Origin: a phage
Assembly: GCA_012646185.1 (NCBI GenBank)
Contig: GCA_012646185.1_4706.1
Direction: 5' to 3' (one strand)
Length of the DNA stretch: 64,000 nucleotides
Each line of letters opens with the position of its first letter. The first letter of the stretch is position 1. This document shows positions 353 through 58,650 of this stretch, in pieces. Below the pieces are notes generated by a model. That model made no database searches and was not told where the DNA came from. It worked only from the letters and a program-made list of their open reading frames with translations. The position numbers were made by a program, and so were the translations under genes.

Positions 353-2890
353 TTACTGCTCTTCACGTTCCAGCAGATACTCGGAAGCGGTAATACCGTT
401 TACCGTACGTACTGCTTTCAGACGAGTATCATCGCTCAGAATTACAGTAACAGATTGCAGACCTTTTACTTTGGTTTCGAAGGTCTTGAACACCTGATCC
501 AGCATACGAGCAATGCTTGGGTTGGTTGCAGCAGATGCGTGAGTGTAACCGCTCTGGTTCAGCTTCAGAATCTTGGCGTTGGTCGGTACGCGAACAACAA
601 CATGCGGACGCATCGCGAACACGCTGTGATTGAACCAGTAAGCATCGTTGCTATCTTCGTCGGTAACGATGTCTGGATTAACACGCATATCCTCGATAGC
701 CGCATCCGCCAAACGACGTTCGATTTCGTCAGCATCCAGAGAACCATCTTTCTCCAGTTCTGCACGATACTCACTCATGGCAACCAGATGACGTTCACGA
801 TTCGCTGCGGATTTTTCGTGAGCGGCTTTCAGGTAGTCATGCATGTTGTACAGTTCTGCCATGGAAAGACGAATGTTCCACTGACCTTCGCCGTCACGAT
901 TGCAGTAGAGACACTTCAGCATGTTGACCCAGGTATAGTAGCAATTGGAGAATTCATCTTCAATGAACTTCTGGTCCATTTTAAGATCGTGAATCAGCCA
1001 ACCGGACAGTTCTCCGATATCATCAACGAAGCTAGAGATGGTGGTTTCAGAGAAGTTCTTCGGTACGATACGTTTGATCAGCTTGTTAACGTCTTTGGTC
1101 ATGCTATCATTCAGGAAATGCCAGATACGCAGAGGAATGACATCTCGATACTGTTGCATGATCTGACGATAAGCTTTGATATCGTCGCTACGACCTTTAT
1201 CAATAGACAACGCATCCAGGAATTCATGGATTGCATCCAGCTCTTTGTCGGTATAGGTTCCCAGATAGGAATTGACGGTGGCCAGGAATGCTAATGCGTC
1301 GTTTTGGTTGACGTCGGTGTTGGTCTGCTGAATGATCGCTACTGAAGCTTTGGTTTCAGCATCCTCAACGCTTGACGCTGCGATCGCGTCGGTGACGGTA
1401 AACAGTTTCATTTCGCGCTGCTCACCGACAACGATTGGCTCACGCTGAACCGGCTTGTTAAGACTAACACGAACAACTTCTGCTTGCGCGATACGATCCA
1501 GTTTTGCCATTTCCTGCTCTGCCATACGACGAGCGGTTGGATCTGATTCAAGTTCGATGTATTCCACTTCTTCCTCCGTGAGGGATGTAATGTCAACAAT
1601 GGTTTCATGAAGAATTCCGTTTTCGTCGATACGTGCTCGACGAGCGAAGTGCCTGAAGTCATACAACGTCGGCCAACGACTATTAGGTGCAAAGTCTTTG
1701 GCTTTCAGACGCATCTGCATAAATTCTTCATGTTGAACAACACGACCGTAACGCTTAGCATCTTCGGTCGCATCAATTGGATTAACGGTCTTTGTTGCCG
1801 TAGCGGAACGAGCCGTACGAACCGGTTCAGGTTGAACGGGTTTCTGCTGCCCAGCCTTAACATGCCATTCTGGCTCTTCGTACTGCTCAGCAAATTGCTC
1901 AGCGGCTGCAAAGATATCGTTGATACCACCAATATCTCCTTCAGGATTTGTCGAGTAAATCCGTGGTTGTGGTGCCTCGTAACGCGGCGCTGTAGCAGCA
2001 GGTGCGTCATCAACGATAGGATCGTCATCACCAACATCATACAAACGGTTGAACGCACAATCCTTCGAATCAATGTACGATGGCGTTTGTGGTTGGACAA
2101 CCGTCGGCCGAGGTTGTGTGCCGTATCCTGGTGTTGTTGGAGCCATACCACGCATAACTGCTGGGTTAGGTTGGTATTGTGGTTGCGGGTAGGTTCCACC
2201 ATACATGGCGTACGCAGGCTGTTGCGGTTGACCATACCCGTTGCTAACCATCGCACTTGCTTGCGGACCACGATAAGTCATCCCCATCTGCATCACCTGC
2301 TGCTTCAAACCACGTGACTTCTGAGCGATTTGCGCTAGGCTTCCGCTTTTATTCAGCTGCGTGTACTTGTTCGCGGCTTCCGGGTTAATGCGTGATAATT
2401 CAATCGCGCGATAATATTCCGGGTACTGATTCGGTTCAAAGAGCCACGTTACAAGATGATACAGCGCAACTGTGCTCACAGCAGCAGAGACGATCTGGTC
2501 GTCGGACGCGTTCTGTGGCATCGGGTTGATGTAAGAGAACACGTTCCAACAACAGTCTTCAACAAGCGATTCCATCATCATATCGTTATTGGTATAACGT
2601 GCGACGAACTCGGTTTGTATTTTGTCTTGCTGAGCGAAGTCTTTCAGGACATTAAAGATGGCTTGACGGATTTTGACGATCGTCGCTTCTTGGGTGATGA
2701 AGTTATAGTTCTGCTGATATGAGGGTTGTTGGTATTGTGGTGGTTGATAGGCGTTATTCGGGTATGCGCCGTACGGCGATTGCTGATACTGTTGCTGACG
2801 AACCCGTTCAGCCGCATAATTAACCGTGCTCGTATAGGGGTTTTCGCTATAGCCCATTTGTTGATACATGTTGTTACTGCCATTATACAT
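353..2890 (-). CDS. large protein (845 aa) with Q/Y/P-rich low-complexity N-terminal regions; function unknown
   Basis: Long ORF; N-terminus and residues about 215-270 are runs of Q, Y, P, G (e.g. QQYQQSPYGAYPNNAYQPPQYQQPSYQQNY); AAGGA upstream of ATG; antisense ORFs 455..1294 and 1607..2317 are nested inside it. Confidence 0.8.
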   Translation of the reverse strand: MYNGSNNMYQQMGYSENPYTSTVNYAAERVRQQQYQQSPYGAYPNNAYQPPQYQQPSYQQNYNFITQEATIVKIRQAIFNVLKDFAQQDKIQTEFVARYTNNDMMMESLVEDCCWNVFSYINPMPQNASDDQIVSAAVSTVALYHLVTWLFEPNQYPEYYRAIELSRINPEAANKYTQLNKSGSLAQIAQKSRGLKQQVMQMGMTYRGPQASAMVSNGYGQPQQPAYAMYGGTYPQPQYQPNPAVMRGMAPTTPGYGTQPRPTVVQPQTPSYIDSKDCAFNRLYDVGDDDPIVDDAPAATAPRYEAPQPRIYSTNPEGDIGGINDIFAAAEQFAEQYEEPEWHVKAGQQKPVQPEPVRTARSATATKTVNPIDATEDAKRYGRVVQHEEFMQMRLKAKDFAPNSRWPTLYDFRHFARRARIDENGILHETIVDITSLTEEEVEYIELESDPTARRMAEQEMAKLDRIAQAEVVRVSLNKPVQREPIVVGEQREMKLFTVTDAIAASSVEDAETKASVAIIQQTNTDVNQNDALAFLATVNSYLGTYTDKELDAIHEFLDALSIDKGRSDDIKAYRQIMQQYRDVIPLRIWHFLNDSMTKDVNKLIKRIVPKNFSETTISSFVDDIGELSGWLIHDLKMDQKFIEDEFSNCYYTWVNMLKCLYCNRDGEGQWNIRLSMAELYNMHDYLKAAHEKSAANRERHLVAMSEYRAELEKDGSLDADEIERRLADAAIEDMRVNPDIVTDEDSNDAYWFNHSVFAMRPHVVVRVPTNAKILKLNQSGYTHASAATNPSIARMLDQVFKTFETKVKGLQSVTVILSDDTRLKAVRTVNGITASEYLLEREEQ

Positions 2891-2924
2891 TTCTTACGAT
2901 CCTTTTTATTTATTCGGTTATGTG

Positions 2925-4721
2925 TCAATCGATTATGTCGTGATCGTTAATTTCTACAATTTCTTCATCGAATCGACCGACGTCTTTCTTCAAGCCTGCA
3001 TTGGTTGCTGCAACGTCATTTGCAATTTGTGGGGTAATGATTAACCGACCGCGCTCATCGATAGGTGCGTACATACTGAACTTCTGACGTCCGGTTGGTT
3101 CGGAGTGTGGAAGATTCAGATAGCTTGCACAGAACGGGATGGAACCACTAACCAAACGACTCTCGTCAGCCAATGCAGCACCGCCTGCGTTTTGGCTCTG
3201 GAGAACAACATGCGTGCTCACTTTGAACAGCATGCAATCACCAGGTGACTGAATCGATGTTGCCACTTTCTCACGTTTATCACGATTGCTCTGGATATTG
3301 AGAATCGCTTCCGTTGCAACTTGATTTCGCAACGCCTTCTGTACATCGCGATTGGTCATCTCTTTACGGTTGTTCTGTCGTTTACCACGTTCTGTGGTTT
3401 TAAGATGGAACCCCAGTTTAAAGATGCTCTTACGCACATCCTCCATGACATATTCCAACACCATCAATTCCTTACCGAACATCGTCGTGGTGTCAACACG
3501 ACTCATTTCGATAGTGACATTGTCAATCAGATACGCCATAAATTCATAGAAGTCGTCGCAAGGAATATTTTCCTGTTTGAACTTCTTCTGCTGAATTTCG
3601 TCAACGTAAAGATCGAGACTGTCGATGTGGTGGTTTACATCACGCAACAAACGCGCATCCGCATTGTTGTTATTAAAGATAATCAAACCGAGTAATGTAC
3701 GCCAATGGTCTGGCGCATTCGCGAACTCTTCAACCGGATAGTCTTCCGGAAAACGATCGTAATAACGGTCGATGAGATACAAGAATGCACCGACAAGGCC
3801 AAGAACAATACGTTCCGTGCCTCCACGTCTTACAGCAATTTGAATATCAGGATGTTTGTAACGTACAGCGCTAGCGCTACGGCTTTTACCGCTTTTGCTG
3901 ATACTAAAGCCTTTAGGAATAACCCCCATGGTGCGATAGATTACCCATTGGTCACGCGGAAAATCACGTTCAGCAAGGTTCCGTCCGGTTACGGCTTCGA
4001 CACCTGCAAAACGTCGGAAACACTCACCCACCCCGTACTTCGCAAAGAGATAGTGACCCAGTGTGGTTACGCTGGTGTGGTTGATGTTGTCACCGTTCAC
4101 TTTACTTTGTTTAGTAAGATGATAGATTTGCGACCAGGGTAATGACAGGTAATGACGATAATCGATACCGGTCGGTGTATCGTTGCTCAGGAACTGATAC
4201 GGTGTACGTTTAACCGTGATTTTGTCACGCGGAAGCATGATGAACGCCATGTCTTTCGTGTAACTGATTACGGGGTCAGCGAGTACCGCACTGAGAATGA
4301 AGTTCGCACCACGTAGACGCATTTTACCACCCTGACCTACCGCGGGTAATAGGAGAGGATGTCGGATAATGCAGTAGTCCTTTCCGGGTTCACGACGGTC
4401 ACCTGATTCCATCGCGCCGTACCAGCGGAATTCTAGCATCACCATAAACACATCGGAAGGCGCAAGGTCGAAGGTCAGCTTACCGCTATCCTTCCCTTTG
4501 GTTTTCTTTCCTCCGCTTAAGTAGTGGAACTGTTCGCGGGCCATACAGCGACGCAGGCCATGATACACCAGATCCTTAGGTAAACTATCTTTGCTGTTCC
4601 GCCAAAGACGATCAACATAGGACTCAACATCTTGCATCTTATCGACGACGATGTTGCGTGCTATCTTCTCGTTCATCTTCGGTGCAAGCTCAGCGACAGC
4701 TTTGCAGAATCTAGGATCCAT
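2925..4721 (-). CDS. hypothetical protein (about 598 aa)
   Basis: Long ORF; start moved to ATG at 4719-4721 preceded by AAAGGAG at 6 nt (the ORF-track start at 4724 is a GTG one codon upstream); no catalytic motif recognised. Confidence 0.75.
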   Translation of the reverse strand: MDPRFCKAVAELAPKMNEKIARNIVVDKMQDVESYVDRLWRNSKDSLPKDLVYHGLRRCMAREQFHYLSGGKKTKGKDSGKLTFDLAPSDVFMVMLEFRWYGAMESGDRREPGKDYCIIRHPLLLPAVGQGGKMRLRGANFILSAVLADPVISYTKDMAFIMLPRDKITVKRTPYQFLSNDTPTGIDYRHYLSLPWSQIYHLTKQSKVNGDNINHTSVTTLGHYLFAKYGVGECFRRFAGVEAVTGRNLAERDFPRDQWVIYRTMGVIPKGFSISKSGKSRSASAVRYKHPDIQIAVRRGGTERIVLGLVGAFLYLIDRYYDRFPEDYPVEEFANAPDHWRTLLGLIIFNNNNADARLLRDVNHHIDSLDLYVDEIQQKKFKQENIPCDDFYEFMAYLIDNVTIEMSRVDTTTMFGKELMVLEYVMEDVRKSIFKLGFHLKTTERGKRQNNRKEMTNRDVQKALRNQVATEAILNIQSNRDKREKVATSIQSPGDCMLFKVSTHVVLQSQNAGGAALADESRLVSGSIPFCASYLNLPHSEPTGRQKFSMYAPIDERGRLIITPQIANDVAATNAGLKKDVGRFDEEIVEINDHDIID

Positions 4722-6435: not shown

Positions 6436-6534
6436 CTGACTTATGTATCACGGTGCCGGATGAATGTCCGGTGCAATGAAACCATCCGCAACGTTGTCGT
6501 CAAGAATATCGTCCAACGAAGCAGCTACGGTAGT

Positions 6535-8757
6535 TCAGTTAGTCTGAACCGGCAGCTTGATGTTTTCAGTGTAGACCTTACGCAGGTTCACAACGTTAAT
6601 CAGACCCAGCAGCGGGCAGTTGTTAACGAAGCGGCAGCGCGGCTGAACCATGGTTTCTTTAGAAACCTGACCGTTACGGGTAACCTGAGCAACAGATACC
6701 AGTTCCGGTACATACAGGAACATACCGAAGGTCAGCGGATCCGGAGAACCCTGGATACCACGAGACAGGGTCACGAAGATCTTATCGCGCAGCATGACGT
6801 TCGGGTTATCTACAACCACGAAGTTGAAGCTTACACCAACGGTACGGAAATCGCCATCGGTCTGCAGGAACTGCGGGATGTAGTTGTCAGTTGCTACTAC
6901 GCAACGCGGTTTCTCATCAGCGTTGGAAGACAGCAGCTGCAGAGCTGGCTGATAACCAGACTCGGAGTACATGCGGTATGCCATCTCACGAATCACGTTC
7001 ATGATCGCAGCAGACACTTCAGCACGACGTTCTGCAGTGGTGGTACCCTGAACAGATTTCTCCAGGTCCAGATTGATTTCTTCGAACCACGGACGGATCA
7101 GGTAACGACCGAAACCTTCGATCTGGATGTCGCCGAACTGACGGAAGCGAGAGGTCGCAACCGCTTTCAGTGCGTCTTTGTAGCTGAACAGTTTCTCAAC
7201 CATCAGGTTGTCGAAACGTGCGTTAGCAGCTTGGATCAGAACGTCCAGGTCAGCAGCGTTTTCTTCCCAATCCAGCGGACGAGGAATGGAGAACGGAGCC
7301 AGCAGGCCGATTGCGTAACGTTCTTGCTTCATGTTGAAGTCAAGGTGCTTACCGCGCTCACGACGGTTGCTGTTGTTACGGCGGATACGCAGTTCGTAAC
7401 CAACCAGTTTGAAGCTCAGGTCTTCAGCCAGCTGTTTGAACTCTTCGCCCTTACGCGGTTGTTCGATGTTGTCACGATCGACCAGACGATACAGTTCAGC
7501 GTTAGCGCCGTTAACACGCAGACCGGCTTTCTCTACGTTGGAAGAACCGTAAACTTCGATTGCCAGCTGAGCAGCGGATTTCGAATCGATGATGTCCTGC
7601 AGCGCTTCAGCTCGTGCACCTTTAACGTCAACGGTGTTCTCATCAACGAAGATGGAGTGGGTGTCGAACGCCAGGGTCATTTTGCGGAAGTCGCCTTCCA
7701 GGGATTTCTGGAAACCGTTGGTGATCAGACCAGATACGTCGAACGGTACGTAAGAGGTTTTGCTGTGCTTGGTAGATTTGATTTCCACCAGGATTTTGGT
7801 CAGCGTGATCTGGGCGTCCAGCGCGTCGGTGTTGTCGCTGTAACCGTTAGCCAGGATGCTATCGTCTTCAGCGATACCGATCATGTCGATCAGTTTATCA
7901 ACAGCCAGGTAAGACGTTTTATAAGTTACGCCTTTAATTTCGATGTCGCGCGGAGCAACGATAGCTTTGTCAACGAAGTACTGTGCGTTAGCATCGTCAG
8001 CACGATAGATCGGATGCAGATCGGTCACGTCGTTGGACAGAACGTCGTTGTACATGAACGCATCCAGCAGCGGACGACGTACCCAATCAGCCGGAGTACC
8101 GTCAGCGTTACGACGCAGGTGGTTGAACACCAGCGGACGACGGAAAGATACGTCGTAACCGATCTGGTTCGGAGCCAGAACGATGGTGTTGTACAGTTCG
8201 TTACCCATGCGGCTCAGACGAGAAGCCTTCACGTTGAACACAACGGAGTACGGCATCATGTCACGCAGTTCTTTCTGGTCGTAGGACAGCTGAACCAGTT
8301 CTTCAGATTCGCAACCGCAGGAATCAGCAGCCATCATGACGAAGTTAGAGCTGTCAACTTCACGGCCAGACGGAGTGGTGCTGATGTTCATGGAACGTGC
8401 TTGTTTAGCATATTCCACCGGGTTACCATGAGCCAGCATGATCAGTGCTGCTGCACGAGCCTGCTGTGCGTTCATGGTGAACAGCTGTTCTTCAATACGC
8501 TGCTTCTCTTCCGGAGTGGTGGTTTCGAAGCCCAGCATGGACAGAACCGGTTCTTCGGCTTTACGGATGTCGCTGCTGAAGCTCTTAACATCCATTTCGT
8601 TAACCAGTTTGTCCATGGATTTGAAATCAACCTTAGAAGCAGATTCCATAGACAGGAAGGTGTTCTCCAGACCTTTGTCTGCTGGTTTGCTACCATTAGC
8701 GGTCAGGAACTGGCGAGTGGCCGCGACCTGTTGGCTAAGAAGGGTTTTATCATTCAT
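6535..8757 (-). CDS. major virion structural protein, tentatively major capsid protein (740 aa)
   Basis: Strongest codon bias in the window (its antisense strand is stop-free for about 2.3 kb, ORF 6460..8760); AAAGGA 8 nt upstream of ATG; followed by hairpin; size fits jumbo-phage capsid proteins but no motif confirms the fold, and a tail sheath protein is an alternative. Confidence 0.45.
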   Translation of the reverse strand: MNDKTLLSQQVAATRQFLTANGSKPADKGLENTFLSMESASKVDFKSMDKLVNEMDVKSFSSDIRKAEEPVLSMLGFETTTPEEKQRIEEQLFTMNAQQARAAALIMLAHGNPVEYAKQARSMNISTTPSGREVDSSNFVMMAADSCGCESEELVQLSYDQKELRDMMPYSVVFNVKASRLSRMGNELYNTIVLAPNQIGYDVSFRRPLVFNHLRRNADGTPADWVRRPLLDAFMYNDVLSNDVTDLHPIYRADDANAQYFVDKAIVAPRDIEIKGVTYKTSYLAVDKLIDMIGIAEDDSILANGYSDNTDALDAQITLTKILVEIKSTKHSKTSYVPFDVSGLITNGFQKSLEGDFRKMTLAFDTHSIFVDENTVDVKGARAEALQDIIDSKSAAQLAIEVYGSSNVEKAGLRVNGANAELYRLVDRDNIEQPRKGEEFKQLAEDLSFKLVGYELRIRRNNSNRRERGKHLDFNMKQERYAIGLLAPFSIPRPLDWEENAADLDVLIQAANARFDNLMVEKLFSYKDALKAVATSRFRQFGDIQIEGFGRYLIRPWFEEINLDLEKSVQGTTTAERRAEVSAAIMNVIREMAYRMYSESGYQPALQLLSSNADEKPRCVVATDNYIPQFLQTDGDFRTVGVSFNFVVVDNPNVMLRDKIFVTLSRGIQGSPDPLTFGMFLYVPELVSVAQVTRNGQVSKETMVQPRCRFVNNCPLLGLINVVNLRKVYTENIKLPVQTN

Positions 8758-8906
8758 TGAAAGTATCCTTTACAGAATTAACTTATATAAGTCGGTCGAT
8801 AGACCATAGCGTACACGCGTGCATGCGCCACTATAGTATCAGTAAACACTTACCGTTATTGAGGTCGTGATACAACACTAAAAATGCCGCATAACTTTTC
8901 CCTACG

Positions 8907-9527
8907 TCACAAACGACGCAGGCGATAATGGATGGAACGATTGGTGCAATATGAACGGAACAGCGGCAATTGCGCAACTTCCGCAAGACTCATATTAATT
9001 CGCAGGTGTTCAATAACGGCGCTGTAGTTATCAGCAATACGATCGCTCAATAACTCTTCTGCCAATAAAGGAAGACAATCGACAACAATCGCGATCACAT
9101 CCTCATTAACATAACGCACCCGAACACTCAGCGGACGTTTGTCTGGGCTGTAAGTTGGATCCGCCAAACGACGTTCAATATCACGCGGATAGCTCGTCAG
9201 TAAATGGTAATAACCATTGTCATAACGATTGATGTACTCACACAGCACATCAACATTCTTCTCTGGCGGCAAACCTGTTTCGTCATAGTGATACGCAAAC
9301 ATACCACCAAGCAGGTTGTTAAGATGAACCGCAGGGTTCGCTTGTTCGTGTTCTTTCGTGATGAAGAAAGGCACGTTCTGGGCTGCGAAATAAAAACCTA
9401 CATCATTGGGCGATAGTATGCCGAAAAGACTTTTAGGGTCTAATAACACCTGTAAGTCATCACGCGCATTTCGAATAATCGCGTGTTCTACCCAATTCGG
9501 AACGACGAGATATCGGAGTTCCTTCAT
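8907..9527 (-). CDS. hypothetical protein (206 aa)
   Basis: ORF with AAGAGGTAA upstream of ATG at 9525-9527; divergent from 9567..11177. Confidence 0.7.
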   Translation of the reverse strand: MKELRYLVVPNWVEHAIIRNARDDLQVLLDPKSLFGILSPNDVGFYFAAQNVPFFITKEHEQANPAVHLNNLLGGMFAYHYDETGLPPEKNVDVLCEYINRYDNGYYHLLTSYPRDIERRLADPTYSPDKRPLSVRVRYVNEDVIAIVVDCLPLLAEELLSDRIADNYSAVIEHLRINMSLAEVAQLPLFRSYCTNRSIHYRLRRL

Positions 9528-9566
9528 TATGATTACCTCTTTGCAAGTATCGAAAGGATTGAGTCG

Positions 9567-11177
9567 ATGGACCCAAAACAGATAGCCATTAAGATTATTA
9601 CGTTACTGTTTCGTAATGCACAATTGAACCATCCCGATCCCAGTACGATCGAACATGTTAAATCCGTCTTAGATAAAGTCGAACCCCCGAAAAACCATCT
9701 CGCTACAGACGTAGATAGAGAGGTTTTCAACAACCTGATGAATACCATTCATTGGATGTTGGAACAACCATTATCGGAACCTTTCGATAAACAACAGTTG
9801 TTACAAAGGATACGTTTGGATTGCCTTGAACAAAGCAATCTTTACGAGATTCTTGCCGACGGACTGTACGATATCGAAGACGACGCTCATATCAGTAAGG
9901 TCTGTTCGCTCTATTACAATGAATTACGTAATCTGATTACCCGGCGTCGTGTTTTCGAAACCTTTAAAAACACGTACATGGATATCAGTAACGGGCGACT
10001 TGGGGATAAAGAATTTTTCGATGCGATGGCGAATCTGAAATTATCGCTAGACAGTATCGAAATGGATACCGAAAATCCCGAAGAGATGTCGTGTATGATT
10101 GACGGCTTTATCGCTGACAGCGAAGACGATATCGAGAAAGTTGAACGTATGTTCGTCAAAGCGATGGAACGTAACAGTCCTGAAGGTGGATTTGTAACCG
10201 GCTGGCAAGGCTTTAATAAAATGTTGGGGTCGGTCGGCGTTTTACGTCGCGGTACCTTAGGACTGATTGGTGCAATGCAGCACCGGAACAAGTCAGGCGT
10301 GTTGTTAAAACTGTTCACACATCTGGCATTGTACAACAAACCCCATTTCTTTTTCCCAGAGCGAGCAAAGAAAGCATTACTGATTCATTTGTCGACAGAA
10401 AACGAAGTGGAAGAAAACACGCTTCAGATATACAAGAACATGCGAGAACAGGAAACGGGCGAATATGTCGATATTCGTAAGATTGACCCTCGCGAGGCAT
10501 CACGTTATGTGTTGAAGGTGTTCAACGATGCGGGTTTCTCTGTTTGTATGCGTCGTGTTGATGGGATGAGTTATAAACAACTCGCTAATCTCATCGACCA
10601 TTTCGAACGCATGGGTTATGAAGTCATGGCGTTGTTCATTGACTATCTGAAAATGTTCTCATCGGAAGGGTTGGATAGAAATGGACCGACCGGCGCATGG
10701 CTCCAAGAACTCTTCAACAAAGTCCGTAACCTCTGCAGCGTTAAACGTATTTTAGGTATGACGGTACACCAGCTGTCATCCGATGCGAAGATGCGTGCGC
10801 GTGATGGTAACGATGAAGAGTTTGTTGACCAGGTCGCAGGTTTAAGTTACTGGGATGGTTGTAAAGGGATCGACCGTGAGATTGACCTTGAGGTGATTGT
10901 TGATATCGTTAAGGAGCCGGGCAAACGTCAAAGTTGGCAGGTCTTTGCGTTAGGGAAAGACCGTCAACCGGATAACGGTTCAACGAAACCTGAAGACAAA
11001 CATTTCGCGATGCCATTCCAAACCATCGGGATGCTTCCTGATGATTACGGTAAGAAAGCAGTATACTGCCGCAAGGTTGGCGGACAACCTGTCTCCGAGG
11101 GAGGTAAAGGTCCGTGGAACAAGTTCGATGAAAACGCAGCACCGAGTAATGAATTACAATTTGATTTAGAATTTTAA
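9567..11177 (+). CDS. hypothetical protein (about 536 aa)
   Basis: Long plus-strand ORF; start placed at ATG 9567 (AAGGA 8 nt upstream) rather than the GTG at 9483, which would overlap the divergent gene; no clear Walker or catalytic motif. Confidence 0.7.
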   Translation: MDPKQIAIKIITLLFRNAQLNHPDPSTIEHVKSVLDKVEPPKNHLATDVDREVFNNLMNTIHWMLEQPLSEPFDKQQLLQRIRLDCLEQSNLYEILADGLYDIEDDAHISKVCSLYYNELRNLITRRRVFETFKNTYMDISNGRLGDKEFFDAMANLKLSLDSIEMDTENPEEMSCMIDGFIADSEDDIEKVERMFVKAMERNSPEGGFVTGWQGFNKMLGSVGVLRRGTLGLIGAMQHRNKSGVLLKLFTHLALYNKPHFFFPERAKKALLIHLSTENEVEENTLQIYKNMREQETGEYVDIRKIDPREASRYVLKVFNDAGFSVCMRRVDGMSYKQLANLIDHFERMGYEVMALFIDYLKMFSSEGLDRNGPTGAWLQELFNKVRNLCSVKRILGMTVHQLSSDAKMRARDGNDEEFVDQVAGLSYWDGCKGIDREIDLEVIVDIVKEPGKRQSWQVFALGKDRQPDNGSTKPEDKHFAMPFQTIGMLPDDYGKKAVYCRKVGGQPVSEGGKGPWNKFDENAAPSNELQFDLEF

Positions 11178-11203
11178 ACGCAAAAAAAAAAGATTGTGCG
11201 GTT

Positions 11204-11251: not shown

Positions 11252-11578
11252 TTAACTTATTGTCATGAATTCATTAGGTGAAAATTTCCAGCCGTTCTCA
11301 GTGAGAAGCGTGTTGAGTTTCGCTGCAACGATAAGCCATGCATGCATGGCTGTTACATCGTATTGGCGATTCACTCGACGTTGGTTTTCGATATTGATTT
11401 GCTCCTGTTCAGTGATGTTTGGATAAAGTGCGATAGCGCTAGGTTTACCCAGCGCGCTAGTCATCACCGCCGTACATTCACTGATAATGTTGTTTAAGTG
11501 GTAGTTATACACCGTTCCACGCATGACGCGATGACGGCATTCGATAATAGCGTCGTAAATGATTTCTCGAGTAATCAT
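11252..11578 (-). CDS. hypothetical protein (108 aa)
   Basis: ORF tightly following 11585..11986; no obvious SD, so start is uncertain. Confidence 0.55.
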   Translation of the reverse strand: MITREIIYDAIIECRHRVMRGTVYNYHLNNIISECTAVMTSALGKPSAIALYPNITEQEQINIENQRRVNRQYDVTAMHAWLIVAAKLNTLLTENGWKFSPNEFMTIS

Positions 11579-54173: not shown

Positions 54174-55046
54174 TTAAACCCGGGTCAGGTCACCGTGATA
54201 TGAAACGAACTCTGATAACGCTCGGGTTGCTTCTTTGGATTCTTCAACCATCGGGAAGTTTGCGGTAATAAGTTCTCGTAAGACAGGGACGAGTTCATTA
54301 TCTTCGAGATCGGAAGCTAAGGCGAATGCAATCAGTTCTTGGGTGTATGCATACGGTTGCTGACGTAATGCAGTAAGCTGATCCCGACACTGCGACATTA
54401 GCAGGTCCAGTGGAACCGCTATCGTACCCCCTTCATCAATATACTGGCTGAACACCGGTGGGAACGCATCGCTGATGACACGAATACGTCGACGAATATG
54501 ATCCGGAATCTGGACGTTTTCTTCGTCGGTGATATTTTCGCTGTCTTTCTCCAGCTTCTTGGTCAGTACCTGTTGGATGCGTGGGAGCAAGCTTGAATGC
54601 ACGAAACCGATTAATGGGGTTACGTTAACAGCATCAACGCCGTAAATATGATGCACGCATTCCGCCAGCGCTTCAGCTGTGGTGTAGTCTTCATCTTCAA
54701 CGATAGCGAGTAGAAAAGCGGTATCGTCATGTGTTTCCAGGTCTAATAACGTAGACGCCAGTGCATGAAGATATTTCAGGCTATCCAGAGTTAGCTGTCC
54801 TTCGTTAATTCGGATCCCGAAGGCAAGCAATTGTTGTTTATAAAGTTCGATACATCCGTTTGTTAAAATGATATCTAATTCGTTTAAATCGTATTGTTCC
54901 CCAGCACCTGATAACATCGTACTGCAGAACGTTTCCAGTTGTTCACATTTAAAATCTTGGTATAAACGATGCATGCAGTGCTGTAACAGCGTACGCCTTG
55001 TTTCAGGGATCTTACCTTCTAACAAAGCCAAGACGGAATCAATCAT
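54174..55046 (-). CDS. hypothetical protein (about 290 aa)
   Basis: Start placed at ATG 55044-55046 (GGAG 5 nt upstream) rather than GTG 55052. Confidence 0.7.
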   Translation of the reverse strand: MIDSVLALLEGKIPETRRTLLQHCMHRLYQDFKCEQLETFCSTMLSGAGEQYDLNELDIILTNGCIELYKQQLLAFGIRINEGQLTLDSLKYLHALASTLLDLETHDDTAFLLAIVEDEDYTTAEALAECVHHIYGVDAVNVTPLIGFVHSSLLPRIQQVLTKKLEKDSENITDEENVQIPDHIRRRIRVISDAFPPVFSQYIDEGGTIAVPLDLLMSQCRDQLTALRQQPYAYTQELIAFALASDLEDNELVPVLRELITANFPMVEESKEATRALSEFVSYHGDLTRV

Positions 55047-55142
55047 ATCCACTCCGATGCGGTAAATGTCTACTAGCTCTCATAATCTATTGAAGAAACT
55101 ACCAGCTTACGCCAACTTAGATTAATCAGGAGTAACCATCCC

Positions 55143-55616
55143 ATGCCAGTTTCATCCAAACCAAGAAAAAAATCCGTAGGAAACCCTAAAGCTCAGGAAA
55201 CAACAGCAATTCGTTGGGACGAGTTACGTGAACCTATCGAAAACTGCGAATTGTTATTAGGTACCCTGGGTGCAGCTATTTACCAAGCGACGCAACCCTG
55301 TCGTTTACGATTAACCCAAAACAAACGTGATGAGTTCGTTGCGTTATCAACAAGCACGAATAAAGATCTGACCGAACTTCAAACCGAGTTGACGACGATC
55401 AAGAACTCCATTACGCCGATGTACGGTAAAGAAGTTGATGAACAAAGTATTCTGTTACAGTACAACTACGGGATGTCGTTAATGAACATCCTGGAACGCG
55501 CATCCGATATTCTGCGTCCTGACGTTGCACGCCTAAGCCAACTGCGTGTCGAAGGGATGGAGAACCAGATCCGATTCGCTAACAGTGTTAAATCTCAAGG
55601 AGCCACCGAAGCATGA
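55143..55616 (+). CDS. hypothetical protein (157 aa)
   Basis: ORF after the divergent spacer; ATGA overlap with the next gene. Confidence 0.65.
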   Translation: MPVSSKPRKKSVGNPKAQETTAIRWDELREPIENCELLLGTLGAAIYQATQPCRLRLTQNKRDEFVALSTSTNKDLTELQTELTTIKNSITPMYGKEVDEQSILLQYNYGMSLMNILERASDILRPDVARLSQLRVEGMENQIRFANSVKSQGATEA

Positions 55617-57277
55617 GCGAACAAGAAAAAGAAGTCGTGACGAATCAGGAAGCCACCGAACGTTCAGAGTCGTCCGTTGAAACTACGATTCCGGCAAGTT
55701 CCGAGCCGGTTGGTTCCGCACAGCAGGAAAGTAAAGACGAAGTAGTGGCTCCAGAAGCAACCCGTGAAGAAGAACCATCACATCCACCGCTGGTCGATTT
55801 CTCGAAGGCAACGATACGTTTCCAATGCGAAGACATTCGTCCTAAGAGCCCGAAGAAAACAAAACGCCAGCCGTTGGTGTTACCGTTATATTCTCCGCGT
55901 GTACAGACAACGTATTACCGGGAATACATCAACGAAGCGATGGATACCGTACAAGCCATTGTCGCTCAACGCGGTAAACCGACAGACGAACAGTTTGATA
56001 AATTCAGTAAAGCGGTGGTGCAATCGGTTGCTGATGGACAATACCATCCGCGCGGCCCAGCTCACGATCGCGCGTTGGAACGTAAGGGCAGTCAGTGGAC
56101 TAACGTACCCGTAGACTCATCGGGTGTTGGTCGCGTTATTCCTGGCATCCCGCAACCGAACCATATTCCTGATGATGTCGAAGCGCCGCTGACAGGAACC
56201 GATGCGATCTATTTTGCTATCCGTAATACGAAATCAGGTGCGCCTGCGGTAATGCCGTTATGGCATAGCGGTATTAAGCTGCAGTTCAATCCGCCGTCAA
56301 ATGAACGTGTTGCAATTATGCACGAACGTATTGCCCGCGATAAAATCCTGGGTGGACGTGATAGCACCGGTTTCCTGTTTTCGGCAACCTCGATTATCAC
56401 CATGAAGCACGCAATCGAATTAGCGTTAGAATGCTGTTACATGGCCAACGTACCGAACCTGGATATCCAGCGTTTGAAAGACATTATCCCGGTTACCGAT
56501 GTTCCAGCGTTATTACTGAACGTGTTGGTAACCATGTACCCGTACGGATATCCTTACGTACAGACCTGCTATCAGAATCCAGAAACCTGCGACTATCGTG
56601 TTGAAGATACCGTAAGCTTTGCGAAACTCTATCAAGTTGACAACAGCGCGATAACCAAACGTATGCGACAGATCATGACCGAAGGTCCGGTCATGACCGA
56701 TGAACTTTTGCGTGAGTATGCAAACGAACTGGGTGAAACAAACTCCCGTACGCTGGATCTGTCCGACAACGGTTCTGTTATCATTGAACTTGAAGTACCG
56801 AAGATTTCACGACAAATTGCCATGGGCGAACGCTGGTTAAGCGATACGCTGGAAGATCTGCGTGATATTCTATCGCGTCCGTCAATGACCGAAGAAGAGC
56901 GCGATCGTGTTATTCGTGAACGTCAGTTCTATAGCTGGATGCGTCAGTATGATGCATGGATCAAATCGATGCATGTGTCAGTAAACGGCACCATGCGTCG
57001 TGTAAGCGATGCGGATACAGCAACGGTATTAGCGCAGCTGTCTCGTGATAGCGATCTTCGTGAACGCTATATCGATGGGTTGATGCAATTCATCGGTGAT
57101 TCGACGATTGCGCTCGCAGCGATGCCTGCCTGGAAATGTCCGAAATGTAATGCCGATATTGCTGACAATCTACGTGACCAGAAATACTACGATCTGATTG
57201 CTTTGGATGTACCCCAGCTTTTTTTTACCCTAAACTCCGTCCAATCTCTTCAGGAGGGGATGGACGCGGTATTCTAA
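55613..57277 (+). CDS. hypothetical protein (554 aa) with C-terminal CPKC zinc-ribbon-like motif
   Basis: Long ORF; T8 run at 57219..57226 near the 3' end; the -1 frame is open from there to 57699. Confidence 0.75.
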   Translation: MSEQEKEVVTNQEATERSESSVETTIPASSEPVGSAQQESKDEVVAPEATREEEPSHPPLVDFSKATIRFQCEDIRPKSPKKTKRQPLVLPLYSPRVQTTYYREYINEAMDTVQAIVAQRGKPTDEQFDKFSKAVVQSVADGQYHPRGPAHDRALERKGSQWTNVPVDSSGVGRVIPGIPQPNHIPDDVEAPLTGTDAIYFAIRNTKSGAPAVMPLWHSGIKLQFNPPSNERVAIMHERIARDKILGGRDSTGFLFSATSIITMKHAIELALECCYMANVPNLDIQRLKDIIPVTDVPALLLNVLVTMYPYGYPYVQTCYQNPETCDYRVEDTVSFAKLYQVDNSAITKRMRQIMTEGPVMTDELLREYANELGETNSRTLDLSDNGSVIIELEVPKISRQIAMGERWLSDTLEDLRDILSRPSMTEEERDRVIRERQFYSWMRQYDAWIKSMHVSVNGTMRRVSDADTATVLAQLSRDSDLRERYIDGLMQFIGDSTIALAAMPAWKCPKCNADIADNLRDQKYYDLIALDVPQLFFTLNSVQSLQEGMDAVF

Positions 57278-57369
57278 TCGATCCGCGATACGGGTTACAT
57301 GACGGACAACTTGTTCGTAATGATGAAAAAATCTGGGAATTGCTGTTAGCGCGTAAAGGCGACGGCGGC

Positions 57370-57699
57370 ATGAAACTGAACATCGAAATGGGTATTGCGT
57401 ACGATACCATGTTTGGCTTGTACGATCGTGTTAACGACTGGACGCCGTTGAAATGGGTGGCTCAGCATCCCGCTGAAGATCCCTGGGACAGATTAGGAAT
57501 TAAACCCTTAATCGAGGATTATGTCCGATTCGGTATTAAAGAGTTCATGACGCTGGATGCGTTTTTAAAAGCACCGTATCCTTACGCGCAAACGGTACTC
57601 AAAATCGCACAAGACGAACTGCGGAAACGTAGTGCGGTACTGGACGACGATGAGGACAAGTTACGACGAGAAGAAGAACGTTTACGAAACGGAAAATAA
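57370..57699 (+). CDS. hypothetical protein (109 aa) or frameshift extension of 55613..57277
   Basis: First ATG at 57370; the frame is open upstream to 57178 and overlaps the upstream gene. Confidence 0.5.
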   Translation: MKLNIEMGIAYDTMFGLYDRVNDWTPLKWVAQHPAEDPWDRLGIKPLIEDYVRFGIKEFMTLDAFLKAPYPYAQTVLKIAQDELRKRSAVLDDDEDKLRREEERLRNGK

Positions 57700-57700
57700 A

Positions 57701-58210
57701 ATGGCGAGATTTACCAGTTTGATTGGGTTGGATATTTGGGAAACACCGGCTGACGTTCGGGTTATTCCTGTCAACACCGTCGGTGTGATGGGACGTGGTC
57801 TTGCCAAACAGGCAGCTGATCGTGTGCCCGGTCTTCTTGAAGCGTACCGTAAGCAATGTCAAGATGGGTTTAAGGTGGGCGAAGTCGTATCGTATCAGCA
57901 AGGCGAGAACGATCAGCTCACTTACGTGTTGTTTCCATCAAAATCGGATTGGCGTGAAAGAACACGACGCGAGTATATCGTTAACGGTTTACTGGCGTTA
58001 AAAGCATGGTTACTGGAGCTTCAGTTCGAAAGAGACGGCTTCTCATACCACCGTCCGGCTGAACCGCTGATCGTTGCAATTCCTCCGGTCGGTTCTGGTT
58101 GCGGTAATATCGGTTACGGACAATCCGAAACAATCCAGCCTCAATGGGTACGCACACAAATCAAACAGTATCTTGCCACCGTACCAAACGTTCATTTCTA
58201 CTTGTTCTAA
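57701..58210 (+). CDS. macrodomain (ADP-ribose-processing) protein
   Basis: Motifs VIPVNTVGVMGRGLAKQAA and IVAIPPVGSGCGNIGYG fit the macro fold signature; start at ATG 57701 directly after the upstream stop. Confidence 0.55.
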   Translation: MARFTSLIGLDIWETPADVRVIPVNTVGVMGRGLAKQAADRVPGLLEAYRKQCQDGFKVGEVVSYQQGENDQLTYVLFPSKSDWRERTRREYIVNGLLALKAWLLELQFERDGFSYHRPAEPLIVAIPPVGSGCGNIGYGQSETIQPQWVRTQIKQYLATVPNVHFYLF

Positions 58211-58226
58211 TGCAAAGGTAACATAA

Positions 58227-58258
58227 CCCTCCTCCAACCCGTAAGGGAAGGAGGAGGG
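58227..58258. terminator. bidirectional hairpin between convergent gene blocks
   Basis: CCCTCCTCC-AA-CCC-GTAA-GGG-AA-GGAGGAGGG, identical to the 11204 copy. Confidence 0.65.
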
Positions 58259-58275
58259 CTTATGCTGTTATGCTA

Positions 58276-58650
58276 TTAATGTTCGTTCCAGATGGCATCT
58301 TCCGGTGGAACAATAGGATCTTTCTTCGGCATTGATGGCACTTCATGGCGATGCTTACGAAACTGCCTATCGATAACCTCACGAAGCCGGTACGCGTCAA
58401 CCCATGTTGATTTATTGAACAGCTCCAATGTCACAGTTAATCGTGTTCTTGACATTGAATAGCTTTTCTTCGCAATCAAATTGGGATAATTCAGTTGAGC
58501 GAACCACGCACGTATTTGTGCTTCGGTAAAAGCGATGCTGTAATAACTAAGTTTACCGTCATTAAAATCGTGCGCGTGGGTGTAGCGTCCAGCGTAACGC
58601 CAGACAAGATGCACATTCAGATCGATCCATGGTGGGGTGGTATCAGCCAT
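58276..58650 (-). CDS. hypothetical protein (124 aa)
   Basis: GAGGG 7 nt upstream. Confidence 0.65.
   Translation of the reverse strand: MADTTPPWIDLNVHLVWRYAGRYTHAHDFNDGKLSYYSIAFTEAQIRAWFAQLNYPNLIAKKSYSMSRTRLTVTLELFNKSTWVDAYRLREVIDRQFRKHRHEVPSMPKKDPIVPPEDAIWNEH

Follow-up and report, generated by a model that had tools for sequence, protein, structure and literature searches.

Does a run of eight T near the 3' end of a jumbo phage gene mark the point at which two annotated genes are expressed as a single protein? The question arises in a 64,000-nucleotide (nt) stretch of phage DNA, contig GCA_012646185.1_4706.1 (hereafter the window), in which a gene at 55613..57277 is followed on the same strand by a smaller annotated open reading frame (ORF) at 57370..57699. 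Over 55000..58300, the DNA is 97.4% identical to that of the nucleus-forming jumbo phage vB_EcoM_Goslar of Escherichia, in which the two genes are annotated as gp081 and gp082; these names are used here for the window as well, and both ORFs and the features described within them and between them lie on the plus (+) strand. A first-pass annotation of the window had proposed a programmed -1 frameshift linking the two ORFs. The analysis reported here supports this proposal through a slip site that is conserved family-wide, an open -1 frame and a coding type of evolution in the gap between the two genes. Judged from sequence comparison, a -1 recoding event at the T-run very probably makes a fusion protein, and this event is likely to be a ribosomal -1 frameshift conserved in the nucleus-forming jumbo phages (Chimalliviridae and their relatives).

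The T-run (T8, 57219..57226) is the only run of at least eight T in the 64-kb window. The gene reads it as CAG CTT TTT TTT ACC, with a slippery T_TTT_TTT heptamer at 57220..57226 in X_XXY_YYZ phase; both the coordinates and the codon phase that had been proposed check out. CTT TTT TTT encodes Leu-Phe-Phe, residues 536-538 of gp081, and the T8 is identical in Goslar. Upstream, the last stop codon of the -1 frame (TGA, 57175..57177) sets the 5' limit of the possible shift region. From there the -1 frame is indeed open (57178..57699) as far as a stop codon at 57697..57699, 140 codons beyond the 0-frame stop, and its first canonical start codons come as late as had been claimed, with a TTG at 57340 and an ATG at 57370. 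A fusion of about 695 amino acids (aa) had been predicted, and the conceptual -1 product is exactly 695 aa long (79.1 kDa).

Is this site kept in relatives, as the first-pass annotation had suggested looking for? A sample of 50 non-redundant homologous loci was compared, reaching down to ~20% protein identity and covering 13 host genera (Escherichia, Salmonella, Pseudomonas, Erwinia, Ralstonia, Vibrio, Klebsiella, Serratia, Xanthomonas, Burkholderia, Proteus, Cronobacter and Bacillus). The loci came from phiKZ and Noxifer, 34 IMG/VR contigs, five closer relatives obtained by protein search and contig look-up, and 14 cultured phages, namely Xanthomonas LucasX, Erwinia SNUABM_54, Pseudomonas RVTF4, Burkholderia FLC9, Ralstonia RP12 and RSF1, Proteus phage 10, Vibrio sm033 and Yong XC32, Bacillus AgentSmith, Klebsiella FBKp24, Salmonella SA002, Cronobacter CR5 and Serratia Moabite. 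All 50 carry a T-run at the conserved Phe-Phe pair in the same codon phase, 10-39 codons upstream of the stop. The heptamer is TTTTTTT in 29 loci, TTTTTTC in ten, GTTTTTT in five, GTTTTTC in three, and TTTTTTG, TTTTTTA and ATTTTTT in one each; U_UUU_UUY is found in 39 loci and U_UUU_UUN in 41. Run lengths are T8 (21 loci), T7 (15), T6 (11) and T5 (3).

The codons used at the site go beyond what the protein requires. Every locus has TTT as its first Phe codon, even in GC-rich genomes in which TTT makes up 14-30% of Phe codons, and the wobble base that precedes it is T in 41 of the 50 loci. SNUABM_54 and AgentSmith have Leu as the second residue (encoded by TTG and TTA, respectively) and nonetheless retain a run of seven T. 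Because TTT is used against codon bias, T occupies the preceding wobble position and the run persists despite the change from Phe to Leu, the comparison indicates that the slip site is selected at the nucleotide level, beyond the amino-acid need. AgentSmith also extends the gp77 protein family, to which gp081 belongs, and the frameshift arrangement to a Gram-positive host.

Downstream of the run, the -1 frame is maintained as well. In all 50 loci it can be read from the run past the end of the 0 frame without meeting a stop; in 49 of them it continues for 150-179 codons, and the translated extensions can be aligned over their whole length. Elsewhere in the upstream gene, -1-frame stops account for 1.5-22% of codons, while the stretch from the run to the end of the 0 frame is free of them in all 50 loci. 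Moreover, in 12 other lineages a -1-frame stop is located just 13 nt 5' of the Phe-Phe codons. With such stops close to the run on its upstream side and none on its downstream side, the shift region must be narrow, and the T-run is its only slippery element. Homologs lacking both the run and the open frame had been named as an outcome that would speak against a frameshift; the opposite was found, with the two present together in 50 of 50 loci.

Could the extension be translated from a start codon of its own? The first ATG, GTG or TTG in the -1 frame falls anywhere from 8 to 101 codons past the slip site (+85 in phiKZ-type phages and +101 in locus L023). An alignment of 46 lineages shows that the best-conserved N-terminal motif of the extension, GHVxxPxFGL (H..FG; F in 41 and G in 39 lineages), lies ahead of every column in which start codons are enriched, and 38 lineages lack ATG, GTG and TTG altogether in the interval from slip site to motif. 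PHIKZ076.4 (80 aa) covers just the final 80 of the 165 codons of an extension, the frame of which is open back to the seven-T run of phiKZ. On this alignment, the extension is without a conserved initiation site of its own, as expected for programmed ribosomal frameshifting (PRF). As for the start codons in the window, relatives have CTG in place of TTG 57340, and at 52% identity a Pro codon takes the place of ATG 57370.

The annotated intergenic stretch between the two genes (57278..57369, 92 nt) was compared in six Goslar-like genomes: the window and Goslar itself, and contigs from IMG/VR (two), Logan (one) and a Salmonella assembly (one, of 180 kb). Its 24 variable sites are distributed over the codon positions of the -1 frame as 18 in position 3, five in position 1 and one in position 2 (binomial P = 3.6e-5). 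The same third-position pattern is seen in annotated gp082 (48 of 61 sites) and, relative to the 0 frame, in gp081 (21 of 25). This third-position excess indicates that the gap evolves as -1-frame coding sequence. Read in that frame, it supplies part of a linker and the N-terminal portion of the extension domain, in which lies GILIDPRYGL, the Goslar version of the H..FG motif, which lies upstream of the annotated gp082 ATG.

The segment that would be read in both frames appears to be constrained in each. Across the same six genomes, the overlap 57221..57277 (57 nt) has five variable sites, none of them from 57221 to 57246, and three of the four altered 0-frame codons are synonymous. Family-wide, the 0-frame tail keeps an FFxLxxxR pattern. 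With both frames maintained, two products are more plausible than a shifted product alone. The dual-coding overlap itself (57226..57277) encodes the gp081 helix tail TLNSVQSLQEGMDAVF, followed by the stop codon, in the 0 frame and a Pro/Gly/Ser-rich linker, YPKLRPISSGGDGRGIL, in the -1 frame.

Taken together, expression of the locus may be pictured as follows. Most ribosomes on gp081 would read CTT TTT TTT ACC and terminate at 57275..57277, giving a protein of 554 aa (62.6 kDa) whose last 16 residues complete the C-terminal helix. In a minority, tRNA-Phe on both UUU codons would slip one base 5' on U_UUU_UUU and translation would resume at TAC (57226). These shifted ribosomes would go on through the Pro/Gly-rich linker and a helical domain of ~120 residues to the stop at 57697..57699, giving the 695-aa form, in which the terminal helix is swapped for linker and domain. 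The site would thereby set a fixed ratio of short to long forms of one protein. Here we infer the ribosomal mechanism, the extent of slippage and the role of the extra domain. The product annotated as gp082 is most likely the tail of the long isoform and not necessarily a free-standing gene. The predicted trans-frame junction peptide is YYDLIALDVPQLFFYPK, and four further predicted trans-frame peptides (LRPISSGGDGR, GILIDPR, YGLHDGQLVR and IWELLLAR) fall upstream of the annotated gp082 ATG.

Is the slip site accompanied by a stimulatory RNA structure? The first-pass annotation had described a short GC stem about 10 nt downstream of the run, and complementary arms do exist in the Goslar-like genomes: CGTCCA (57238..57243) can pair with TGGACG (57261..57266), with the stem starting 11 nt past the run. 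However, the fold of minimum free energy prefers a shifted register, and conservation backed by covariation is missing. In the preferred register, the candidate hairpin (57236..57264) has a 7-bp stem formed by UCCGUCC (57236..57242) and GGAUGGA (57258..57264). It begins 9-11 nt 3' of the run and encloses a Shine-Dalgarno-like AGGAGG at 57253..57258. In Goslar-like genomes, the 70 nt that follow the run have a folding energy of -25.1 kcal/mol (z ~ -3 versus shuffles). Relatives at 52-56% identity have different hairpins with the same 5' arm; within the Goslar clade, the partners of this arm, CUCC(G/A)UCC, are placed differently. Among other lineages, some have 7-10-bp stems ~10 nt downstream and many do not, with single-sequence folds giving z mostly between -1 and +1. 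RNAalifold returned -2.6 kcal/mol and zero compensatory pairs for six Goslar-clade sequences, and Rfam had no match at the candidate hairpin. No Shine-Dalgarno element was seen upstream of the run by eye in the sequences read, and no scan for one was made.

What do databases and published data say about the two products? HMMER, queried with the 157-aa extension against 1.84 billion representative proteins, found no in-frame fused homolog; it returned 13 matches, all of 92-155 aa and with ragged N-termini. Against a word-index of 5.8 billion proteins, a junction-spanning query had zero matches and the extension alone matched the annotated 109-aa ORF only. None of the 17 GenBank records inspected contains a joined coding sequence or an annotated slippage at this place; across GenBank records the downstream ORF is called at 74-150 aa, leaving 'gaps' of up to 218 nt. 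A full-text literature search, with subscription journals mostly outside its coverage, found no report of this frameshift site. Protein-level data are available for Goslar, where liquid chromatography-tandem mass spectrometry (LC-MS/MS) detected gp081 with 24 peptides (an estimated 15-35 copies); gp082 was represented by a single peptide of 12 residues (2-5 copies by estimate), with an area/mass ratio of ~0.14 (bioRxiv 10.64898/2026.04.21.720040, Table S4). These values are compatible with a minor long isoform.

Several observations weigh against a programmed ribosomal frameshift. Position 1 of the heptamer is G or A in nine of the 50 loci, which is suboptimal for tandem slippage. There is no universally conserved structure downstream; the hairpins are lineage-specific, without covariation support, and start 8-11 nt past the run, which is rather far. 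The modal run length of T8 also fits slippage by RNA polymerase. One locus of the 50 breaks the pattern: in RVTF4 (PQ015378.1, ~2840..2900), an extra frame change beside a GGGG run splits the extension, placing the GHV..FGL motif and the rest of the domain in different frames, although this is probably an indel or an assembly error. As for the Goslar data, the search database consisted of annotated ORFs only, gp082 is represented by a single spectrum, and the preparation includes the non-virion proteins chimallin and PhuZ (bioRxiv 10.64898/2026.04.21.720040).

Alternative explanations have to be weighed against this background, beginning with an event at the level of transcription. If the phage or host RNA polymerase stuttered on the T-run and inserted an extra U, the same 695-aa fusion would result. 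The two mechanisms predict the same protein and the same comparative signal, so comparison cannot separate them. Jumbo phages of this group transcribe with their own divergent multisubunit RNA polymerases. A pure homopolymer with T8 as its commonest length and T7 next (21 and 15 of 50 loci), seven T kept even where the second Phe became Leu, and the lack of a conserved stimulatory RNA structure would all suit a stuttering polymerase. However, efficient transcriptional slippage by bacterial RNA polymerase needs runs of ~9 nt, and the T5 or T6 runs in 14 of the 50 loci fall far short of this; the ribosome is favoured for that reason. A ribosomal slip is also favoured because the motif is phase-locked and because runs longer than the six Phe-codon bases extend on their 5' side, at position X (T in 41 of 50 loci), the side that is relevant to tandem tRNA re-pairing. 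Overall, we consider transcriptional slippage a live alternative, though an unlikely one.

A more speculative variant, and one to which we give slightly less credence, is that phage-specific machinery makes or tunes the recoding, either through the phages' own RNA polymerases stuttering on short T-runs or through phage ribosome-binding proteins that modulate host ribosomes. The ratio of short to long isoforms would then shift in the course of infection and serve as a developmental switch. The T5-T8 variation, the lack of a conserved cis stimulator and the phiKZ homolog, which is listed as an early-expressed protein (PMC11849849), leave room for such a reading.

The two ORFs might also be separate genes after all, with the downstream one translated from a non-canonical start, by termination-reinitiation or, in Goslar, from ATG 57370, and with the T-run as the mere footprint of a Phe-Phe pair. 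All GenBank records inspected show the locus in this way, and the databases searched hold no fused protein. A start codon does precede the conserved motif in eight of the 46 lineages, and the AGGAGG lies 12 nt ahead of an ATT codon at 57271. However, start positions are not conserved and the other 38 lineages have none ahead of the motif; relatives have GTT, TTA or ATA instead of the ATT, and those at 52-56% identity lack the AGGAGG. Separate genes also do not explain why -1-frame stops, although found elsewhere, are always missing from the segment that joins the run to the end of the 0 frame, and a Phe-Phe footprint leaves unexplained the choice of TTT, the T at the preceding wobble position and the retention of the run where Phe became Leu. 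This explanation therefore appears improbable. Finally, a homopolymer sequencing or assembly error, or a recent pseudogenising frameshift, in one long ORF is scarcely credible, since, error-prone as homopolymers are and notwithstanding the extra frame break beside the G-run of RVTF4, the same frame relation recurs in 50 independently sequenced genomes and metagenome contigs, none of them in-frame, and the 0-frame tail past the run is itself conserved.

How unusual is the proposed frameshift site within the window? The long ORFs contain 36 in-frame X_XXY_YYZ heptamers, and a long -1 extension past the stop is found only at the T8 site, with 140 codons versus 36 at the next-best heptamer. The latter (G_GGT_TTT, 8742..8748) is located at the end of a 766-aa ORF (6460..8760, +), which is mirrored on the opposite strand by a 740-aa ORF (6535..8757, -). 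A second candidate, A_AAA_AAA at 55166..55172 (AGA AAA AAA TCC) in gp080 (ORF 55143..55616), was rejected as a chance resemblance and used as a negative control: only five codons can be read in its -1 frame before a stop, and the 88%-identical relative from the Salmonella assembly has an interrupted run (AGAAAGAAA). The longest homopolymer of the window is an A10 at 11182..11191, after an ORF at 9483..11177 and before a convergent ORF at 11252..11578. Reading the T-run as the tail of an intrinsic terminator, or as part of an internal promoter for gp082, was also rejected, as no terminator-like site and no plus-strand promoter-like site was found in 56900..58400.

What kind of protein would be extended? 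The 0-frame gene (55613..57277) encodes a product of 554 aa and 62.6 kDa that is 99% identical to Goslar gp081, a 554-aa protein annotated as hypothetical. Full-length similarity and synteny place it in the phiKZ gp77 / PHROG 4585 family. The phrog_4585 profile matches gp081 end to end (residues 9-546, E = 3.6e-67), and tblastn found homologs in 158 phage records, PHIKZ077 among them. Upstream of gp081 in Goslar are the divergently transcribed genes for a virion RNA polymerase beta-subunit and gp079, and synteny with divergently transcribed RNA polymerase beta and gp79 genes is shared with phiKZ, Noxifer and other relatives. The neighbours of the gp081/gp082 locus comprise virion RNA polymerase beta-subunit, helicase and macro-domain genes. 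The homolog in Bacillus phage vB_BspM_AgentSmith (MW749006.1, 901..2604) is named 'putative baseplate hub assembly protein', a name without support in the searches made.

Structure prediction suggests what the shift would change. The protein has an acidic, disordered N-terminus and a well-predicted core that spans roughly residues 150-550; a CxxC motif resembling a zinc ribbon is located at 509-512. The AlphaFold2 model of gp081 (predicted local distance difference test (pLDDT) 69.5, predicted template modelling score (pTM) 0.70) leaves the first ~90 residues disordered and places the Phe-Phe pair at the start of the last helix (533-553). A shifted product would therefore lose this helix and gain a disordered Pro/Gly linker and a helical domain. 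The extension is itself modelled as a helical domain with a long charged helix at its end, preceded by a linker with pLDDT below 50. No solved structure in the PDB matched the gp081 or the extension model in a fold search, a PDB sequence search gave only noise, and Pfam searches with gp081, the extension and 13 homologs yielded nothing consistent.

Annotated gp082 (57370..57699, 109 aa, PHROG 12109) makes up the C-terminal two thirds of the 157-aa extension, and the PHROG 12109 profile has ~48 N-terminal positions beyond the annotated ORF. In Goslar, gp082 is called from the ATG at window position 57370, and a macro-domain protein gene follows next downstream. This gene is annotated from ATG 57650, overlapping gp082 by 50 nt, while the calls in relatives (169 aa) and the Pfam Macro match fit ATG 57701, 1 nt past the gp082 stop; the macro-domain start may thus be annotated 17 codons too early in Goslar. 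The end of the extension ORF differs between two Logan assemblies of the same 49,041-bp contig (SRR33371455 and SRR33371454), where an indel near 4540..4615 changes its length from 158 to 180 aa. In SRR33371454 (locus L040), the indel joins the extension ORF to the macro-domain gene and is likely an assembly or population variant. The Salmonella assembly mentioned above, GCA_007261085.1 of S. enterica serovar Panama, holds a 180-kb Goslar-like jumbo phage contig (AAHLWB010000010.1) with a gp081 that is 88% identical and a gp082 region without any called gene. This suggests that a Goslar-type phage was carried by, or co-cultured with, the Salmonella Panama isolate.

If the frameshift is real, all 158 matched phage genomes are mis-annotated at this locus, and the small ORF, called at 74-150 aa according to where a gene caller came upon a start codon, is the C-terminal domain of a longer gp77 isoform. 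Knockout, transposon sequencing (Tn-seq), localisation and proteomics experiments on either ORF would then have to allow for the frameshift. This matters because nucleus-forming jumbo phages are models of phage cell biology and candidates for therapy. The site would also represent a rare -1 recoding signal, on a U-run with tRNA-Phe, that is conserved from phages of Gram-negative hosts to Bacillus phages.

How does the site compare with known systems? One parallel is the -1 frameshift of T7 gene 10A/10B, reportedly described by Condron, Atkins and Gesteland in 1991. Both use tRNA-Phe codons at a U-rich site near the 3' end of the ORF, and both would give a minor, C-terminally extended isoform beside a major short one. 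However, the 10B extension is ~50 aa long and sits on a capsid protein, whereas here a linker and domain of ~157 aa with an unmatched predicted fold would be added. There is also no sequence homology, and the present site, unlike that of T7, is kept family-wide to ~20% identity.

A second parallel is the frameshift of lambda G/GT-type tail assembly chaperones, on which Xu, Hendrix and Duda are said to have reported in 2004. Again, a -1 slip takes place near the end of the upstream ORF, the downstream ORF has no start of its own, and the arrangement is kept despite sequence divergence. A fixed ratio of short to long product is the presumed purpose there and likewise here. The lambda genes, by contrast, lie between those for the tail tube and the tape measure and use a slippery G_GGA_AAG, while the present locus lies beside virion RNA polymerase subunit genes. 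The two systems are not homologous, and an identity as a G/GT tail assembly chaperone was rejected, as the context differs and there were no chaperone matches in Pfam or PHROG.

With E. coli dnaX (tau/gamma), the site would share -1 PRF by a bacterial ribosome, a homopolymeric heptamer (A_AAA_AAG in dnaX) and isoforms that differ in their C-terminal domains. The shifted dnaX product is the shorter one, however, and its stimulators are well defined, with a Shine-Dalgarno-like element ahead of the slip site and a hairpin 5-6 nt past it, whereas the candidate hairpin described here lies 9-11 nt downstream and is not conserved. The U_UUU_UUA of human immunodeficiency virus 1 (HIV-1) gag-pol belongs to the same class of U-run heptamers with tRNA-Phe in the P site, and the homologous position in AgentSmith is exactly U_UUU_UUA; gag-pol differs in its eukaryotic ribosome, its defined downstream stem-loop and its unrelated gene. 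Sites of transcriptional slippage, such as the A9 of Thermus dnaX, the T9 of Shigella mxiE and those of insertion sequence (IS) elements, also use a homopolymeric A/T run to open a -1 frame to a fusion. Their runs are typically at least 9 nt long, while those described here measure 5-8 nt and are phase-locked to the codon frame. Frameshifts of -1 that give C-terminally extended phage isoforms are already well known, and the case presented here is no new principle. Set beside these systems, it is remarkable mainly for its family-wide conservation in jumbo phages and for the systematic mis-annotation that it implies.

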